64,000 bases of DNA, from assembly GCA_028714455.1 (NCBI GenBank), contig JAQTMG010000001.1, forward strand, positions 128,568 through 192,567. Direction: 5' to 3'. The notes below the pieces were generated by a model. That model had not been told where the DNA came from, did no database searches, and was given only the letters and a program-made list of their open reading frames with translations. Numbering within the stretch: the stretch's first letter is position 1; each line of letters opens with the position of its first letter. This stretch comes from Patescibacteria group bacterium (lineage in GTDB: Bacteria; Patescibacteriota; Patescibacteriia; CAIXNZ01). Positions 3,744 to 26,521 of this stretch are shown one piece after another. A program made the translations under genes and the position numbers.

Positions 3744-3810
3744 GAGTTCAAATAATAAATTTTTCCAATTCCTAATATCTAATACCTAATTACAAATTAC
3801 CAATTACTAA

Positions 3811-3889
3811 TTTGAGCGGGTGACCCCGCACCACAGGGGTGCGGGGTCAGGCTGGATTCTCAACCTAATTCTTGTTTGAGCGGGTGACC
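3811..3889 (-). repeat. 15-nt direct duplication of the tRNA-Gly 3' end (tttgagcgggtgacc) enclosing a GC hairpin
   Basis: Identical 15-mers lie at 3811..3825 and 3875..3889. The hairpin ccccgcacc-acag-gggtgcgggg sits between them. This is att-site-like scar architecture. Confidence 0.5.
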
Positions 3890-6144: not shown

Positions 6145-8238
6145 TTAGCTAGAATTGGCGTGGGGCTTTTTCTTTTTTCTGGTCACGGCCACGACTCCCA
6201 GCCCCAAAAAAGCGGCGCTGGTTAATAAATATTTAAGAACATTTTTACCTTGGTTATTGGGCTCGATTTGCGATGAACCCGCCTGGTTCATCTGCGTCTT
6301 CGCGGTAGTTTTAGCGCTTTTAGCTTTCGTGGTTGTCTTGGATGTTTTGGGCGCAGCTTCTTTGGCCGGAGCGACAACTTTAACTTTTTGCGAGTCGCTA
6401 GTTTCTTCCTTCCCATCATTCACGGTCAGAGCGATTGTATACGTTCCAGCTTTTTCATATTTGTAGCTTGTTATCGGTCCGTCAAAATTTTTATCTTCAA
6501 TTTGCCAGTTGAAACTCAATTCGTCATTGTCCAAATCGTAAGAATCAGAAGCATCGCAAATAATTTCCTCACCAAGGGTCACGGATTTAGTGCAGGTGAA
6601 GTCAATTTCGGGCGCGTGGTTCAGCTTCACGATTATATTTTCCTGATTTTCAGTCGGGCTCGTTGTCCAAAACCAATCGCCATTTTCATCTCTGGCAAAG
6701 GAAACGTTTTCTGGCACAGTTTCGTCCTCGTCATATTTTATTGTTTCCAGCGTCTGGCCGCTTGGGTTAATCAGTTTAACGCTGTCTTTGTCGTTATTGA
6801 GCGCGATGCCGCTAACGCTTCTTTTTATTATCATGAATTGGCCGGGCTTGATTGCGGTCTCGCCGATCGTTTCTTTGGAGACCGTATATTTTTTCTTACT
6901 GCCGTCATTAATTTTCCAGCCGGCTAAATCGATTTCGTTTTTGCCAATATTTTTTAGCTCGATAAATTCATCCTCGAGATCGGAACCGATCGGGTTGGGA
7001 TAAATTTCATTGATGATTATATTTTTGTCTTCATCGGTCCGGCCTTCTTCAGCCGCTAGCTGGGTGTCCTTTTCTTGTTTTACCTTTTTAGCCTCTTCGG
7101 TAAGCGTTATCAGATTAGGCGTTCCCTTGGTCGGAGTTTGAGTCACGACAAAATCTTCCCTGTTGTTGTAGCTGTTGGCGCCGTCAAATATTCTGGCGGT
7201 TGAATCCGGATCTTTGGCGACCGGAGCGTTTTGGTCGGCAAAGCCGTTATCCCAATTACCGTAAGAAACCGCGTCAATAGTATTATTATTGCTGTCTTTT
7301 AAGATTAGGGCATCGCCGGCATTGTTTAATTTGCCTTTTGGTTTTTCAATGACAAAAAAGCGATTGTCATAATTTGAGCCCAGGATTCCGCTAAGTTCGG
7401 TGGCCGTGTCGGCGCCATCAATCAGTTTCCAGCCGCTAAGATCGATGTCAAAAACGTTTTTGTTGTAAATTTCCACCCATTCCACTTCTCCATCCGCGGG
7501 ATCGGAGACAAATTCGTTGATGACAACGGTACCTAACGAAATAATTTTTGGGTGAATGACTGGGGCGCTGTCTTGAGCCGGCTCTTCAGGGTTGTCATTG
7601 GGCTTCTCGCCGGTGTCACCGCTCTCGCCGCCGTTTTGTTCTTCCTCACCCTCCTCGTTATTATCCGGACCTTGATTTTGGTCACCGTCATTTTGAGAAA
7701 ATTCATTTGGTTTGCCGGCGCTGTTTGAACTGGCATGAGTGAGCCAATTTGCTTCACCGTAGTCATTTGAGTTCTGGTCGACTCTCTGCAGCGAGGTGTC
7801 CGGGCAGGGAAGATAGGTAAAAGTTTCGATTGGCTCGCCGCTTGAATTTTTTAAACCGATTTCTTCGCCACTCTCTTTTAGAGAAGACCACGAACTGTCC
7901 AAGACAGTTCCGGTAAAATTCGGATGCAGATTTATAAAGTTGTTACCGACATTGGCGATGATGGCGTACTCGCCGGCCTCGATAATAAAATCGCCCCGAA
8001 CCGCCGTGAGTTTATGGTTTGTCTGGTCCTCATAGAATTTCCAGCCAGTCATGTCCACGGCTGCCGTGCCTTTGTTTAGAATCTCCACCCACTCATTCTC
8101 GCTCTGCTCATAGGCGCCAATTTCATTTATGATGAGATCAGAATCGGCGGCGCTTGCCACCTGCGGTTTAACAAAAAATCCTGACAAAAGGAGAATTATC
8201 AGGAAAAAGAATTTGATTTTTGTTTTTGTTTTTTTCAT
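6145..8238 (-). CDS. secreted/surface protein with lamin-tail (LTD) repeats, an acidic low-complexity linker, a PKD domain and a C-terminal TM anchor
   Basis: There is an N-terminal signal peptide (MKKTKTKIKFFFLIILLLSGFFVKPQVASA). Three LTD-like blocks follow (LIINEI..EWVEILN, VVINEF..EWVEIYN..SGWKL, IIINEIYPNP..EFIELKN). A PKD-like segment is present (SFNWQIEDKNFDG...YTIALTVND). The C-terminus is a hydrophobic helix followed by KKKK. Confidence 0.7.
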   Translation of the reverse strand: MKKTKTKIKFFFLIILLLSGFFVKPQVASAADSDLIINEIGAYEQSENEWVEILNKGTAAVDMTGWKFYEDQTNHKLTAVRGDFIIEAGEYAIIANVGNNFINLHPNFTGTVLDSSWSSLKESGEEIGLKNSSGEPIETFTYLPCPDTSLQRVDQNSNDYGEANWLTHASSNSAGKPNEFSQNDGDQNQGPDNNEEGEEEQNGGESGDTGEKPNDNPEEPAQDSAPVIHPKIISLGTVVINEFVSDPADGEVEWVEIYNKNVFDIDLSGWKLIDGADTATELSGILGSNYDNRFFVIEKPKGKLNNAGDALILKDSNNNTIDAVSYGNWDNGFADQNAPVAKDPDSTARIFDGANSYNNREDFVVTQTPTKGTPNLITLTEEAKKVKQEKDTQLAAEEGRTDEDKNIIINEIYPNPIGSDLEDEFIELKNIGKNEIDLAGWKINDGSKKKYTVSKETIGETAIKPGQFMIIKRSVSGIALNNDKDSVKLINPSGQTLETIKYDEDETVPENVSFARDENGDWFWTTSPTENQENIIVKLNHAPEIDFTCTKSVTLGEEIICDASDSYDLDNDELSFNWQIEDKNFDGPITSYKYEKAGTYTIALTVNDGKEETSDSQKVKVVAPAKEAAPKTSKTTTKAKSAKTTAKTQMNQAGSSQIEPNNQGKNVLKYLLTSAAFLGLGVVAVTRKKKKPHANSS

Positions 8239-8464: not shown

Positions 8465-9022
8465 ATGAAAAATCTGGAAGGATTGGAGGATTTTTTCAGA
8501 CAAGAACTTTATCAGATAATTCAGAAGAGAAAGAATCAGTTGAGCCCAGCCATGGAGGTCGCCGAGGAAGATCTTGGTTACGTGATCTTGCTCCTCCTGC
8601 GGTTCAGCAGCCTCGAGATTTTCAAGGAGAATTTTACCAACACACCCCTGTTTGACCTGGCTTCGAAGCGACAGGCTTTCAGCCGTAGCCAGATCCAAGG
8701 CTTGGCAGACTTTTGCCTCTTCCGTGTTGGTTTTTTTCCGCTCGCTTTTGGCCGCAGACACATGCCGCCGAGAAAAAATTTCATTATCGCGGGTAGGAGC
8801 GCGTATCTAGAGCTAAGCCACGTCCTCCATCCGGCCTTGCTTTTTCTTTCTCTGGGCAAAAATTTTTTGCTTTTTACCAATCTGATCTCCGAGCTTAGAC
8901 TAAGGAACGCGAATAACATTGACGTTATGGAACTTCTTGAACTCTGGGAGGAGACGGGTAGCCACTTTGCGGAAGATCAGCTTCGCCGGATGAAAGTTGT
9001 GCCGATGCGATTGAAAACGTAA
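8465..9022 (+). CDS. hypothetical protein
   Basis: An ATG at 8465 lies 7 nt after an aaaaaggaggg Shine-Dalgarno sequence. A terminator follows at about 9026..9062. Confidence 0.4.
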   Translation: MKNLEGLEDFFRQELYQIIQKRKNQLSPAMEVAEEDLGYVILLLLRFSSLEIFKENFTNTPLFDLASKRQAFSRSQIQGLADFCLFRVGFFPLAFGRRHMPPRKNFIIAGRSAYLELSHVLHPALLFLSLGKNFLLFTNLISELRLRNANNIDVMELLELWEETGSHFAEDQLRRMKVVPMRLKT

Positions 9023-24136: not shown

Positions 24137-24778
24137 TTAGATTATTAATACAATGCCTTGATCACCGTCCATTTTTATTTGAATCCGCTGCCCGTGTTTT
24201 ATCCTTTCAGTCGCATTGCCAGTCCCGACGATGCAGGGGATGTCAAACTCTCGAGCCAGGATGGCCGGGTGAGAAGCGGCACTGCCGTGATCAGTGATGA
24301 CGGCTTTGATCTTTTTGAAAAATGAAGCGTGCGACGGCTTTAAAAATTTAGTGACCAGAATCTGGCCATCAATTTTTTCCAGATTTTTTGCCTCGGGGTC
24401 CAAAAAAGCCTCGCCCATCATCTCGCCGCCATTTCCGATAATCCCAGTTAGAATTTTATCATCGTCTCCAGTAAGTGATTTGCGCCAGTCGACCTTCTGC
24501 CAATTTTCCAGTGCCGAACTTATCGCCTGATTCAAGTCGATGCCTCGCAAAAGAGAGCAGGCTACCAGTTGGACAAAAATTTGTCCATAAGACATTGCCT
24601 CATCGTTCTTGCTGCCATGCGGCCTGGCGCTTGGGTTTAAATTTTGATCGTGCGTTACATATTTTGCCGCATCACCAATTTCCGAAAGCAATATGTTTAA
24701 TCTAAATTCAATATCCTGACGGTCTTCGCCGACCATCAACTTTTTGATTTCTTCCGCGATATGATTTATTGAATCCAT
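24137..24778 (-). CDS. two-domain protein: MazG-like NTP-pyrophosphohydrolase-like N-terminus fused to a PEP-utilising-enzyme mobile (phosphohistidine) domain
   Basis: The C-terminus reads ITDHGSAASHPAILAREFDIPCIVG, which matches the PEP-utilisers' mobile domain. The N-terminus (EIGDAAKYVTHD...) is MazG-like. The longer ORF reaching 24892 extends into the 512-bp repeat, so the ATG at 24778 (MDSINH) is taken as the start. Confidence 0.55.
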   Translation of the reverse strand: MDSINHIAEEIKKLMVGEDRQDIEFRLNILLSEIGDAAKYVTHDQNLNPSARPHGSKNDEAMSYGQIFVQLVACSLLRGIDLNQAISSALENWQKVDWRKSLTGDDDKILTGIIGNGGEMMGEAFLDPEAKNLEKIDGQILVTKFLKPSHASFFKKIKAVITDHGSAASHPAILAREFDIPCIVGTGNATERIKHGQRIQIKMDGDQGIVLII

Positions 24779-25290
24779 TTGGGCGCTAGTGAACGACGTT
24801 AGAACTAAAAGGGGGGACGCGAGAATGAAAATGTTTGCTAAAGAGCACATGGCACCAGATCTGGAGAACATTAAATTTTTCTTCTCAGACACTCAAAATC
24901 ATTTCCACATTCCTGACCTTGAGAAAATAAAAGGGGGAACGTAAAATGTTTATAACTCCACGATTAGTAAGTCTACAAAATTTAATGCCACTGCCAATGC
25001 AGGTTCTTGTCAGATCTGCATTCAGGAGAATCTTCTTTAGTTTCTAGGTTTAGAATTGTCCTTCGATTGCTTTCGTTGGTGCAAAGATCGTTGCGATTCA
25101 GCGATCGCCTTGAAAAGGTTGACCAGATTAATCCCCATGTCCCAAGCTTCTTGATCGGAAAGCTCTATGTCCAGTTCTTTTTTGCAGATTTGTTTGAGTT
25201 CGTCTATGGCTTCTTGCGTTAGCCCCATATAAATCAATTATATTTGTCTAGGCGGTAAGATTCAATCTTAAGGATACATACTGTGGACAA
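24779..25290. repeat. tandem 512-bp element, copy 1
   Basis: Near-identical to 25291..25802. It begins with ttgggcgc. Confidence 0.85.
25037..25237 (-). CDS. repeat-encoded small ORF (66 aa), duplicated at 25549..25749
   Basis: The ORF is conserved in both copies. It has a non-ATG or internal start and no motif. Confidence 0.25.
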   Translation of the reverse strand: MIYMGLTQEAIDELKQICKKELDIELSDQEAWDMGINLVNLFKAIAESQRSLHQRKQSKDNSKPRN

Positions 25291-25802
25291 TTGGGCGCTA
25301 GTGAACGACGTTAGAACTAAAAGGGGGGACGCGAGAATGAAAATGTTTGCCAAAGAGCGCATGGCACCAGATCTGGAGAGCATTAAATTTTTCTTCTCAG
25401 ACACTCAAAATCATTTCCACATTCCTGACCTTGAGAAAACAAAAGGGGGAACGTAAAATGTTTATAACTCCACGATTAGTAAGTCTACAAAATTTAATGC
25501 CACTGCCAATGCAGGTTCTTGTCAGATCTGCATTCAGGAGAATCTTCTTTAGTTTCTAGGCTTAGAATTGTCCTTCGATTGCTTTTGTTGGTGCAAAGAT
25601 CGTTGCGATTCAGCGACCGCCTTGAAAAGGTTGACCAGATTAATCCCCATGTCCCAAGCTTCTTGATCGGAAAGCTCTATGTCCAGTTCTTTTTTGCAGA
25701 TTTGTTTGAGTTCGTCTATGGCTTCTTGCGTTAGCCCCATATAAATCAATTATATTTGTCTAGGCGGTAAGATTCAATCTTAAGGATACATACTGTGGAC
25801 AA
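25291..25802. repeat. tandem 512-bp element, copy 2
   Basis: Only a few mismatches against copy 1. It is followed directly by ttgggcgc, which starts the tRNA-Lys 3' fragment. Confidence 0.85.
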
Positions 25803-25803
25803 T

Positions 25804-25851
25804 TGGGCGCAGCAGGACTCGAACCTGCGACCGTTTGCTTAAGAGGCAACC
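25804..25851 (-). other. tRNA-Lys(CTT) 3'-half fragment (anticodon arm to acceptor 3' end), att-like remnant
   Basis: The reverse complement reads GGTTGCCTCTTAAGCAA-ACGGTC-GCAGGTTCGAGTCCTGC-TGCGCCC-A. The acceptor 5' strand and D arm are missing and replaced by GC-rich hairpins (25852..25880). Confidence 0.6.
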
Positions 25852-25894
25852 CCGAAGGGGCCCCCTTGGGGCTGCTCTACTAAAAACTAATAAG

Positions 25895-26194
25895 TTAATA
25901 TTTTTTAATTTTTATCGGCAATTTATCTTTTGGGGTATTTTTGATCAATTCGGTTATTTTTATTTTTTCCTGGTATCCATCGGGATGTTTCAGATAAAAT
26001 TCTCTTTTAAAAGCTAAATTTTTATCATTATAAATTTCGTAATACATTAAAACAAAAGGAATACGATATCGAGTTGACTTTACTTTTCCTTTATTATGAT
26101 ATTTCAATAACCTTTCTTGCGGCTTGCCAGAAGTACAGCCGATATAAAATTCATTATCTCTTAAACTTAATAGAAAGTAAACAAAGTATTCCAT
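25895..26194 (-). CDS. GIY-YIG nuclease family protein (paralog of 2882..3181)
   Basis: YFVYFLLS...EFYIGCT...KYHN. The start codon lies 2 nt after the tRNA-Lys 3' end. Confidence 0.7.
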   Translation of the reverse strand: MEYFVYFLLSLRDNEFYIGCTSGKPQERLLKYHNKGKVKSTRYRIPFVLMYYEIYNDKNLAFKREFYLKHPDGYQEKIKITELIKNTPKDKLPIKIKKY

Positions 26195-26195
26195 A

Positions 26196-26269
26196 TGACC
26201 CGGCTGGGATTCGAACCCAGGACCTATTGCTTAAGAGGCAACCGCTCTAGCCAACTGAGCTACCGGGTC
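26196..26269 (-). tRNA. tRNA-Lys (anticodon CTT)
   Basis: The reverse complement reads GACCCGG-TAGCTCAGTTGGCTAGAGC-GTTGC-CTCTTAA-GCAAT-AGGTC-CTGGGTTCGAATCCCAG-CCGGGTC-A. Confidence 0.85.
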
Positions 26270-26279
26270 TGATTCTTAT

Positions 26280-26353
26280 TGCACCCAGAAGGAGTCGAAC
26301 CCTCAACCTCTTGGTTCGAAGCCAAGCACTCTATCCAGTTGAGCTATGGGTGC
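26280..26353 (-). tRNA. tRNA-Arg (anticodon TCG)
   Basis: The reverse complement reads GCACCCA-TAGCTCAACTGGATAGAGT-CTTGG-CTTCGAA-CCAAG-...GGGTTCGACTCC...-TGGGTGC-A. Confidence 0.8.
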
Positions 26354-26521
26354 GCGTTTGAATTTAGCACTCCAGTTGCCTGCCCGCCGAAGCTTTAGCG
26401 CAGGCGGGAGCTATGGGTGCGCGTGATTTGCCTAAAGATATTGAAATTTTAACATAAAAAAGTTTTTTAGTCAATCTCGGCAAGTCGCAAAAACATTATT
26501 TTTCTGCTATAATAAAATAAA

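Follow-up and report, generated by a model that had tools for sequence, protein, structure and literature searches.

The 64-kb window analysed here (64,000 nucleotides of contig JAQTMG010000001.1 from a Patescibacteria group bacterium) contains two head-to-tail units of 512 bp, 1,024 bp together, which lie between the remnant of a tRNA-Lys(CTT) gene and a gene for a phosphohistidine swivelling domain (PEP-utilizers). Each unit is probably a minimal non-autonomous cassette from a family of large serine recombinase (LSR) islands that insert at the 3' ends of tRNA genes. Compared with sister genomes, the 1,024 bp are inserted sequence, the ends of the unit and a small open reading frame (ORF) in it, here called ORF63, are homologous to the island family, and the same architecture is found at other tRNA genes. 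The features are collected in Table 1, where L numbers denote loci on other contigs.

Table 1. Features of the tandem units and their flanks (window coordinates), and of related loci (coordinates of the named locus).
Feature	Position	Further copies	Strand	Remarks
Cassette copy 1	24779..25290		-	512 bp; tRNA-distal; adjoins ATG of PEP-utilizers gene
Cassette copy 2	25291..25802		-	512 bp; adjoins tRNA-Lys remnant
Core TTGGGCGC (minus strand GCGCCCAA)	24779..24786	25291-25298 (copy junction), 25803-25810 (tRNA 3' end)	.	Cassette/PEP-gene junction; same 8 nt in all three
P'-type attachment arm GCTAGTGAACGACGTTAGAAC	24785..24805	25297-25317	+	17/21 match to L002 7729-7749
ORF containing the 38-aa ATG ORF	24789-24944		+
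Internal imperfect direct repeat	24803..24941		+	AACTAAAAGGGGGGACG at 24803-24819, AAATAAAAGGGGGAACG at 24925-24941
Decayed relic of last ~25 LSR codons (..FFFSDTQNHFHIPDLEKIK..)	24861..24944	25373-25456	+	tblastn
33-aa ORF	24946-25047		+
70-aa ORF, copy 2	25347-25559		+
Conserved GCAGTGGCATTAAAT segment	24955..24994	25467-25506	-	Exact motif at 24981-24994
ORF63	25037..25228	25549-25740	-	63 aa, predicted two-helix
Promoter-like TTGAAT-17-TATAAT	25237..25265	25749-25777	-	10/12 consensus matches
tRNA-proximal end TTGTCCACAG-T-ATGTATCC-TTAA-GATTGAAT	25260..25290	25772-25802	-
tRNA-Lys(CTT) remnant	25803..25863		-	Attachment target; Rfam below gathering score
PEP-utilizers gene (phosphohistidine swivelling domain)	24137..24778		-	Chromosomal flank; Pfam PF00391; ATG directly after distal core
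Inverted-repeat arms, L002	6326-6352/7835-7861
Inverted-repeat arms, L012	1252-1268/2753-2769
Inverted-repeat arms, L013	402-427/1911-1936
Cassette at tRNA-Gln, L024				~2.2 kb
Cassette at tRNA-Arg-TCG, L040				~1.5 kb, 350-aa cargo
Cassettes at tRNA-Leu-TAA, L036				Two in tandem, 3137 and 1633 bp
Cassette at tRNA-Val, L041				Ends not both recovered
Cassettes at tRNA-Val, L046				Tandem, 1017-bp spacing, frameshifted ORF63

When the two copies were aligned with 10-nt flanks (MAFFT), they were found to be identical at 505 of 512 positions (98.6%). The seven differences (24839, 24847, 24868, 24928, 25049, 25074 and 25105) are all transitions and there are no insertions or deletions. The tandem arrangement and the length given in the original prediction are therefore correct, while the duplication is not perfect, as had been stated there. 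The 512-nt spacing was also recovered by a repeat search of the window; Tandem Repeats Finder was silent on the array, its longest period being 500. For a repeat of this length and identity a chance origin is impossible. The core TTGGGCGC opens both copies and occurs a third time as the tRNA 3' end, so that the junction core and the end of the tRNA-Lys indeed coincide as predicted. The copy junction reads GGACAATTGGGCGCTAGTG and the cassette junction CGTCGTTCACTAGCGCCCAATTGTCCACAGTATG, and the three junctions have only ca 10 nt in common.

The tRNA-Lys(CTT) that provides the core is itself incomplete. The remnant keeps the anticodon arm, the T arm and the acceptor 3' strand with the discriminator, but the 5' third is gone, no acceptor 5' strand is present, and the fold shows that the acceptor stem cannot form. 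ARAGORN does not call it, and the Rfam tRNA model gives 25.8 bits at 25804-25863(-), with a gathering score of 29. With no paired acceptor stem, no 5' third and scores under the thresholds, 25803-25885 is not a functional tRNA-Lys. The remnant equals the intact tRNA-Lys of the sister locus L048 at every aligned position between the anticodon stem and the 3' end.

We now turn to the orthologous site in sister genomes, for which the contigs encoding three homologues of the PEP-utilizers protein were used (loci L047, L048 and L050-52). These have the same gene order as the window, namely VanW, HSP20, TrmB, methyltransferase, tRNA-Arg(TCG), tRNA-Lys(CTT), PEP-utilizers and NUDIX. Their tRNA-Lys is intact, with the 3' end ...GGTTCGAGTCCTGCTGCGCCCA (also given as ...CTGCTGCGCCCA), and the ATG of the PEP-utilizers gene follows within 0-19 nt, immediately after the tRNA in L047 (GCGCCCAAATG) and 10-19 nt past it in L050 and L048. 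The comparison, which had been proposed together with the original prediction, thus reveals no cassette in the sister loci, only an empty site that reads ...CTGCTGCGCCCAA(A)TG. Deleting 24779-25802 in silico renders the window colinear with all three sisters across the boundary between tRNA and gene. Since the sister loci and the in silico deletion agree, the ancestral junction can be written as ...CTGCTGCGCCCAA followed directly by ATGGATTC..., and since the intact tRNA-Lys of the sisters stands beside the PEP-utilizers gene, the 1,024 bp were inserted precisely at GCGCCCAA, a sequence that is found at both insertion boundaries and at the copy junction. As in a mobile element, the insert is absent from the orthologous site and the target is duplicated at its boundaries.

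The homologues of the PEP-utilizers protein have 213-215 aa, are 75-78% identical to it and cover 97-100% of the query, which indicates that the gene is of full length. It had been suggested that the insertion rewired the 5' end of this gene. Its coding 5' end is untouched, as the coverage by the homologues shows, but its upstream transcription context has changed. In the sisters, the gene is located directly downstream of the tRNA pair, and co-transcription with the tRNAs is plausible from this arrangement. In the window, it lies downstream of two predicted cassette promoters on the same strand, with no terminator-like site found between the cassette promoter and 24778, and a cassette promoter may now contribute to its transcription. 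The feature in the window is a small scar of mobile DNA, and its effect on the host would be limited to the upstream context of this one gene.

On the minus strand, each unit contains an ORF (25037-25237 and 25549-25749) of 66 aa when read from a TTG, or of 63 aa from the ATG that is used by its homologues. This ORF, ORF63, is as conserved as originally predicted; it is present in both copies, and an exhaustive HMMER search yielded 54 homologues. It is the only intact ORF with homologues in the cassette, which has no recombination and transfer genes. The two copies differ by I42V and R52Q, residues 1-41 being spared, and the conserved motif of the family is M-P-L-T-Q-x-x-I-D-E-L-K-x-I-x-x-x-x-x-G-x-E-L-S-D-x-E-A-W-D-M-G. 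In a word-index search of proteins, ORF63 by itself matched the source contig and nothing else; this contig belongs to a Patescibacteria metagenome-assembled genome. Looking up contigs by exact sequence gave no match, and a scan of genome contigs with the PEP-utilizers protein gave a single distant locus. The AlphaFold2 model consists of two helices (pLDDT 87), for which Foldseek against the PDB gave only insignificant matches, to histones and acyl carrier proteins. In homologues of ca 200 aa the ORF63 domain is fused to a zinc ribbon, with weak HTH_17 matches that are all below the Pfam cut-off.

The promoter-like site is only 8 nt upstream of the ORF63 ATG and is directed toward the PEP-utilizers gene; because of this short distance, a leaderless or near-leaderless ORF63 mRNA is implied. 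The tRNA-proximal end contains the operator-like palindrome ATGTATCC-TTAA-GATTGAAT (the operator is also written ATGTATCC-TTAA-GGATACAT), the right half of which is the -35 element of the promoter. The module made up of TCCACAG, the palindrome and TTTTCC is also present in the HTH_3/ORF63 control region of the autonomous relative L002. The unit hence has in common with the autonomous family both an ORF63-family gene and its operator/promoter module.

The plus-strand half of the unit was found to consist of pieces that are homologous to the recombinase region of these relatives. The P' arm has its counterpart within their recombinase gene, immediately beyond the crossover point; there are only two such matches in the window, and the arm has four mismatches to the family consensus. 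Behind it, a tblastn search with residues 495-517 of the L002 recombinase against the window gave a match of 56% identity (E 1.7e-4), which is the decayed tail of the gene. The GCAGTGGCATTAAAT segment matches L002 7811-7849 with 85% identity (blastn, E 6.7e-6) and corresponds over ca 45 nt to recombinase codons ~29-43. The P' arm, the decayed tail and the ATTTAATGCCACTGC/GCAGTGGCATTAAAT segment are colinear with six relatives in an alignment (A4), and all three stand by a core that matches the tRNA 3' end, as in the autonomous family. The internal repeat marks an extra segment of ca 70 nt that is absent from the six relatives in the same alignment.

These results change the view of the micro-ORFs. 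The ORFs that had been listed do exist on both strands of the units, but for those on the plus strand there is no support as genes preceded by Shine-Dalgarno motifs. The 38-aa ORF represents decayed C-terminal codons of the LSR, and the supposed Shine-Dalgarno motif AAAAGGGGG(G)ACG (AAAAGGGGGG) is part of the internal partial duplication. The 33-aa and 70-aa ORFs are without homologues and are not the same in the two copies. Searches of Pfam, PHROGs and NCBIfam gave no match for any of the micro-ORFs. The idea that a decayed recombinase 5' end makes up all of the minus strand downstream of ORF63 was also considered and dropped; the conserved coding tail is on the opposite strand.

The absence of a recombinase, on the other hand, is confirmed. 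In tblastn searches with three family recombinases no catalytic domain was found anywhere in the 64 kb, neither in the unit nor outside it, and the only match is the 23-residue C-terminal relic. The unit does not encode an LSR with the Resolvase, Recombinase and Zn_ribbon_recom domains, and in this it differs from the autonomous members of the family.

In these autonomous elements, ORF63 is a neighbour of the recombinase. Its closest relatives (P0056, P0057 and P0074, 54-65% identity) are each located directly upstream of a recombinase of 494-540 aa with the domains Resolvase, Recombinase and Zn_ribbon_recom, and the gene order is a divergent HTH_3 (Xre-type) repressor, ORF63 and the LSR. Further along the islands there are Replic_Relax, DUF932, PD-(D/E)XK and Pam3_Gp34 genes, and beyond these either type I restriction-modification or CHAT genes. 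A metagenome scan added 35 more loci, and in ca 20 distinct contigs the recombinase follows within ca 120 nt after ORF63. NCBIfam puts the recombinase among the large serine recombinases, the best models being XisF, CcrB, CcrA and CcrC, all below cut-off. The enzyme is a large serine recombinase and not the tyrosine integrase that would usually be expected at a tRNA. The islands of L008 and L004 are longer than 10 kb and carry type I restriction-modification, CHAT and AAA_13 genes, their far ends being beyond the 10-kb flanks. A scan of IMG/VR gave no relatives, and there is thus no sign that the LSR island family is viral. In the literature, no description was found of a tRNA-targeting LSR family or of ORF63.

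The last codons of the LSR overlap the 3' end of an antisense tRNA, namely tRNA-Val-TAC in L004, Gln-TTG in L008, Leu-TAA in L016 and Glu-TTC in L022 (in L017 at the contig end). In all of these loci the recombinase ORF enters the tRNA right after a conserved ..LG(L/W)G. In L002, L012, L013, L023, L030 and L038, the ORF instead continues past a palindromic site, for example GTCCAC-CAGGGTGGGGGCTA-GTGGAC, into the conserved tail LVDDVRTFFADPSxHFHIPVLEK, in which the differences between elements are mostly at third codon positions. Since the ORF ends past the same point either in a tRNA or in the conserved tail, the attachment site must be inside the 3' coding end of the LSR. Integration then exchanges the last ca 25 codons, and the C-terminus of the enzyme depends on the integration state. 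The conserved motif ATTTAATGCCACTGC, which follows the tail, is an inverted copy of recombinase codons ~29-33 with flanks.

In addition, it was observed that an inverted repeat of 17-27 nt (the GCAGTGGCATTAAAT motif with flanks) brackets nearly the whole recombinase gene together with the attachment site, with ca 1483 nt between the arms. Candidate roles, as far as the arrangement can tell, are an inversion switch, a protein-binding site or long-range RNA pairing. Two further loci can be mentioned here. In L038, the P'-type site that belongs to the recombinase is followed 1.9 kb downstream by another one with an identical GGGGG core (6710-6730 and 8619-8639; also in L042), which suggests a cassette stacked beside an autonomous element. 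In L028, a high-GC contig outside the candidate phyla radiation, ORF63 is 4 kb from the recombinase, and this locus is too different to inform the comparison.

Our best guess for ORF63 is that it assists or regulates the LSR and might be its directionality factor, because it occupies an xis-like slot upstream of the recombinase, is kept in every cassette and is fused to zinc ribbons in some homologues.

Cassettes without a recombinase were found at five more loci (Table 1). Their layout, all on one strand, is the tRNA, 2-4 nt, T(A/G/T)TCCACAG, the palindrome, TTTTCCCCCTAGA, optional cargo, ORF63, GCAGTGGCATTAAA, the reverse complement of the P' arm, rc(P'), and the core. In most cases the core next to rc(P') is identical to the end of the local tRNA (CCCCAG for Gln, GGGTGCA for Arg, GCGCCCA for Val and Lys). 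At five different tRNAs, the cassettes have the same tRNA-proximal end, located 2-4 nt past the discriminator. Target recognition seems to rest on the tRNA side, given that the distal junction shows no conservation at all in its chromosomal part. The cassettes L036a and L040 have ORF63s with one substitution in 53 aa, rc(P') sequences with 2/21 differences and the same core, but the cargo and the tRNA differ, which speaks for cassettes that move or are exchanged in some way. In a rough neighbour-joining tree, the cassette-linked ORF63s are polyphyletic and that of the window groups with the recombinase-linked ones; this argues for cassettes arising repeatedly from autonomous elements. As to the cargo (L036 2285-4960, L036 5406-6557 and L040 3904-4956), the 891-aa protein of L036 with PHP and ATPase domains passes the NCBIfam cut-off for a TrlF-family ATPase, the anti-phage Ppl model being below cut-off, while the 383-aa and 350-aa proteins have no family assignment.

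Taken together, the unit appears to be composed of two LSR-flanking regions of autonomous elements that have been joined, with the LSR gone. The site-specific insertion that had been proposed at the core coinciding with the tRNA-Lys 3' end is borne out by the empty site in the sisters and by the family-homologous ends and ORF63. According to the proposed mechanism, the distal junction (PEP gene, core, P') would have been made by LSR-catalysed integration, which would leave the C-terminal codons of the LSR at the far end of the island. The join of ORF63, GCAGTGGCATTAAAT and the reverse-complemented tail is, in this reconstruction, the product that would be expected from recombination between the two inverted copies of the segment. 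The second copy would then have arisen by recombination at the core, and the cassette would now be mobile only if a cognate LSR were supplied in trans.

Concerning the second copy, both repeated insertion and unequal crossover had originally been proposed. That the event took place at the core is retained, while the two routes are indistinguishable from this sequence alone. By analogy with CcrB/DsiB-type islands, we lean somewhat towards site-specific accretion. An unequal exchange between sisters, or slippage at the 8 bp of the core, would lead to the same structure, and we attach a lower probability to this route.

It is important to point out that a number of observations weigh against the cassette interpretation. 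Neither a family LSR nor an Xre repressor is found in the 64-kb window. Comparison of the presumed attL and attR shows the distal end to be a canonical P' arm plus core, whereas the TCCACAG end is common to the cassettes and is not the P arm of the autonomous elements. The resulting rc(P')-core-TCCACAG junction is not a dyad-symmetric LSR attP, the tRNA-proximal TCCAC being in direct and not inverted orientation relative to the P' half-site. Compared with the autonomous elements, ORF63 is also inverted relative to the P' arm and the tail, such that at least one rearrangement is needed, for which there is no unambiguous reconstruction. The P' far-end junction has never been seen in an autonomous element, the ends of these being beyond the 10-kb flanks. 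The internal partial duplication and the decayed tail resemble erosion and, together with the frameshifted ORF63 in L046, would fit an inert relic. The copy number comes from a single metagenome assembly. As for the role suggested for ORF63, this protein has no Pfam, NCBIfam or PHROGs assignment, and the fold search lends the role no support either.

Several of these points are what would be expected if the unit were an immobile stump left by the erosion of one full-length island through deletion of its recombinase and cargo, with the second copy formed, without any site-specific enzyme, through RecA-independent slippage or unequal sister-chromatid exchange on the 8-bp repeats. The missing recombinase, the decayed tail with its internal partial duplication, the non-canonical junction with half-sites in direct orientation and the decay seen in related cassettes such as L046 all agree with this possibility. 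The polyphyly of the cassette-linked ORF63s in the rough tree fits repeated independent decay, and the two copies are equal in length and seven transitions apart. We nevertheless consider such a fossil unlikely. Independent random deletions would not reproduce the precise tRNA-proximal end at five tRNA species, and L036a and L040 combine near-identical ORF63, rc(P') and core with different cargo and different tRNAs. In the window itself, ORF63 and the predicted promoter are intact in both copies with the substitutions sparing residues 1-41 of the protein, and a repeat of 8 bp is ill suited to homologous exchange. A non-autonomous cassette of the LSR island family thus remains the preferred reading.

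One can also ask whether the array was created by the assembly, with a single copy, a copy and its excised circle, or two strain variants of the unit being threaded twice. The contig is a single metagenome-assembled one and is also the only database entry with ORF63 at >=90% identity, and the seven differences could in principle be strain polymorphisms. Artefactual expansion, however, normally gives identical copies, and tandem cassettes of the same family are found in independent assemblies (L036 and L046). Moreover, because the junctions share only ca 10 nt, the sequence of the copy junction (GGACAATTGGGCGCTAGTG) must exist in the reads, which would imply either a true tandem or a circular form. 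On this basis, we regard an artefact as very improbable. Even less credible, to the point of being barely conceivable, is that the unit is native non-mobile DNA, a small gene with its leader, that was locally duplicated and resembles the tRNA end by coincidence. It is true that ORF63 lacks a Pfam or NCBIfam assignment and that the GC content of the unit (~0.40) is the same as that of its surroundings. The orthologous site in the sister genomes is nevertheless without the unit, the relatives of ORF63 are almost always found beside a serine recombinase or in att-flanked cassettes at tRNAs, and the ends of the unit match the attachment arms of the family.

A more far-reaching version of the cassette reading was also considered. 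According to this, ORF63-only units would be active hitch-hikers that an LSR supplied in trans captures and shuffles at tRNA 3' ends, giving tandem arrays like those of integrons. Recombination would use the unusual rc(P')-core-TCCACAG site, which lacks dyad symmetry, ORF63 would be a cis-encoded factor that recruits or directs the LSR, and the class would range from the 512-bp "empty" unit to kb-sized cassettes with anti-phage genes. We consider this scenario, with all its parts, doubtful. If true, Patescibacteria and other uncultivated bacteria would have an equivalent of the integron that is built on a serine recombinase.

Two other identities were tried and rejected. A miniature inverted-repeat transposable element or another miniature transposon derived from an insertion sequence does not apply, as there are no inverted repeats of >=12 nt in the unit and its ends, TAGTGAACG... 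and ...CTGTGGACAA, are unrelated. Neither does an integron gene cassette, as the recombinases of the relatives are all serine enzymes and there is no IntI and no attC-like imperfect palindrome; the likeness is limited to tandem units of promoter plus cargo at one site.

It is instructive to compare the unit with known systems. In streptococcal systems of integrative and conjugative or integrative and mobilizable elements, cis-mobilizable elements (CIMEs) and tandem accretion at tRNA or other att sites are known. What defines a CIME is the possession of functional attL and attR that belong to such a known element, usually one with a tyrosine integrase, and excision has been demonstrated. The present unit resembles them in being a recombinase-less derivative that is flanked by att repeats, sits in tandem at a site used by autonomous relatives and presumably depends on a recombinase in trans. 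It differs in that only the distal end is a canonical arm, that the enzyme family is a serine one, and that it is known from sequence alone. In the staphylococcal cassette chromosome SCCmec, the LSRs CcrAB place elements at the 3' end of a conserved gene, each element is bounded by short direct repeats, and recombinase-less pseudo-elements and tandem composites accumulate. The target there is the protein-coding orfX/rlmH, two recombinases are involved and the elements are tens of kb in size, such that the resemblance to the present cassettes is mechanistic only.

The closest described system is that of the ssrA islands of Dehalococcoides. Their integration site is the 3' end of a gene for a small stable RNA, and their dsiB gene, encoding a serine recombinase of ca 540 aa, overlaps the ssrA 3' end on the complementary strand, so that its C-terminus and stop codon depend on the integration state (PMC3146451). 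Short direct repeats of the target 3' end stand between islands in tandem, and some islands without an integration module were proposed to be cis-mobilizable (PMC3146451). The same overlap with the target end, tandems and recombinase-less forms are found in the present family. The likeness to the DsiB system is one of architecture, and there are a number of differences. The present family targets the tRNAs for Lys, Val, Gln, Leu, Glu and Arg and not the tmRNA, the core is 8 bp and not 20 bp, and a 60-aa ORF63 precedes the recombinase while a second small serine recombinase (DsiA/CcrA-like) is not present. The hosts are Patescibacteria and other uncultivated lineages, and the unit in the window, at 512 bp, has no cargo.

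A parallel can also be drawn to the SSV-type ("suicidal") integrases of archaeal elements, which have attP inside the integrase ORF and target a tRNA (PMC7253208, PMC8371274). Integration leaves a C-terminal gene fragment at the far end in that system as well, and the micro-ORF in the window can be likened to such an int(C) relic. The SSV integrases are tyrosine enzymes that are split roughly in two and inactivated, whereas the enzyme here is a serine recombinase that exchanges only its last ca 25 codons and keeps its catalytic and DNA-binding domains whole.

The family behind the unit is thus the more interesting object. It comprises apparently undescribed islands in which an LSR targets the 3' ends of at least six tRNA species, has its attachment site in its own last codons and is always paired with a 60-aa partner. 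The family spawns recombinase-less cassettes that are found in tandem at tRNAs, sometimes with defence genes, and the 512-bp unit nearly defines the minimum that such a cassette has to keep. LSRs with short defined sites are sought for genome engineering, and a set whose specificities for tRNA ends are predictable, together with a candidate directionality factor, would be attractive in practice.

Finally, other tRNA-linked features were observed in the window and in sister loci. In the region of the tRNA-Lys remnant (25803-26269, minus strand), the 5' third of the resident tRNA-Lys(CTT), which has the acceptor GGGCGCA, is replaced by a module of three parts. These are a second, intact tRNA-Lys(CTT) with the acceptor GACCCGG (26196-26269), a 99-aa GIY-YIG ORF (25895-26194) that starts 1 nt after the intact tRNA-Lys, and a GC hairpin CCCCAAGGGGGCCCCTTCGGGG at the D-loop position. 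The sister genomes have a single intact tRNA-Lys. The same arrangement of tRNA-Lys, GIY-YIG, D-loop hairpin and tRNA-Lys is found in an unrelated contig (L040 8618-9100). The module looks like a GIY-YIG homing cassette that targets the D-loop of a tRNA and brings a replacement tRNA with it, which we take to be reminiscent of T4 SegB.

An insertion of 67 bp is present at the D-loop position of the tRNA-Arg(TCG) (26341-26424, minus strand) and absent from L048 and L050. The first 13 nt of the tRNA and 4 nt upstream of it (ACGCGCACCCATAGCTC) are duplicated there, with a GC hairpin (CCGCCTGCGCTAAAGCTTCGGCGGGCAGG...) between the copies, and this may be the footprint of the same kind of D-loop-targeting event. 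At 3799-3889, the last 12 nt of a tRNA-Gly(GCC) and 3 downstream nt (TTTGAGCGGGTGACC, plus strand) are repeated 64 bp downstream, in the manner of an att-like scar. In two of the sister loci (L047 3796-3926 and L050 3790-3917), an insert of ca 130 nt separates the tRNA-Arg from the tRNA-Lys; it is absent in L048 and in the window, and is bounded by a long inverted repeat (CCCCGATAAAAGCTT ... AAGCTTTTATCGGGG) that adjoins the 5' end of the tRNA-Lys.

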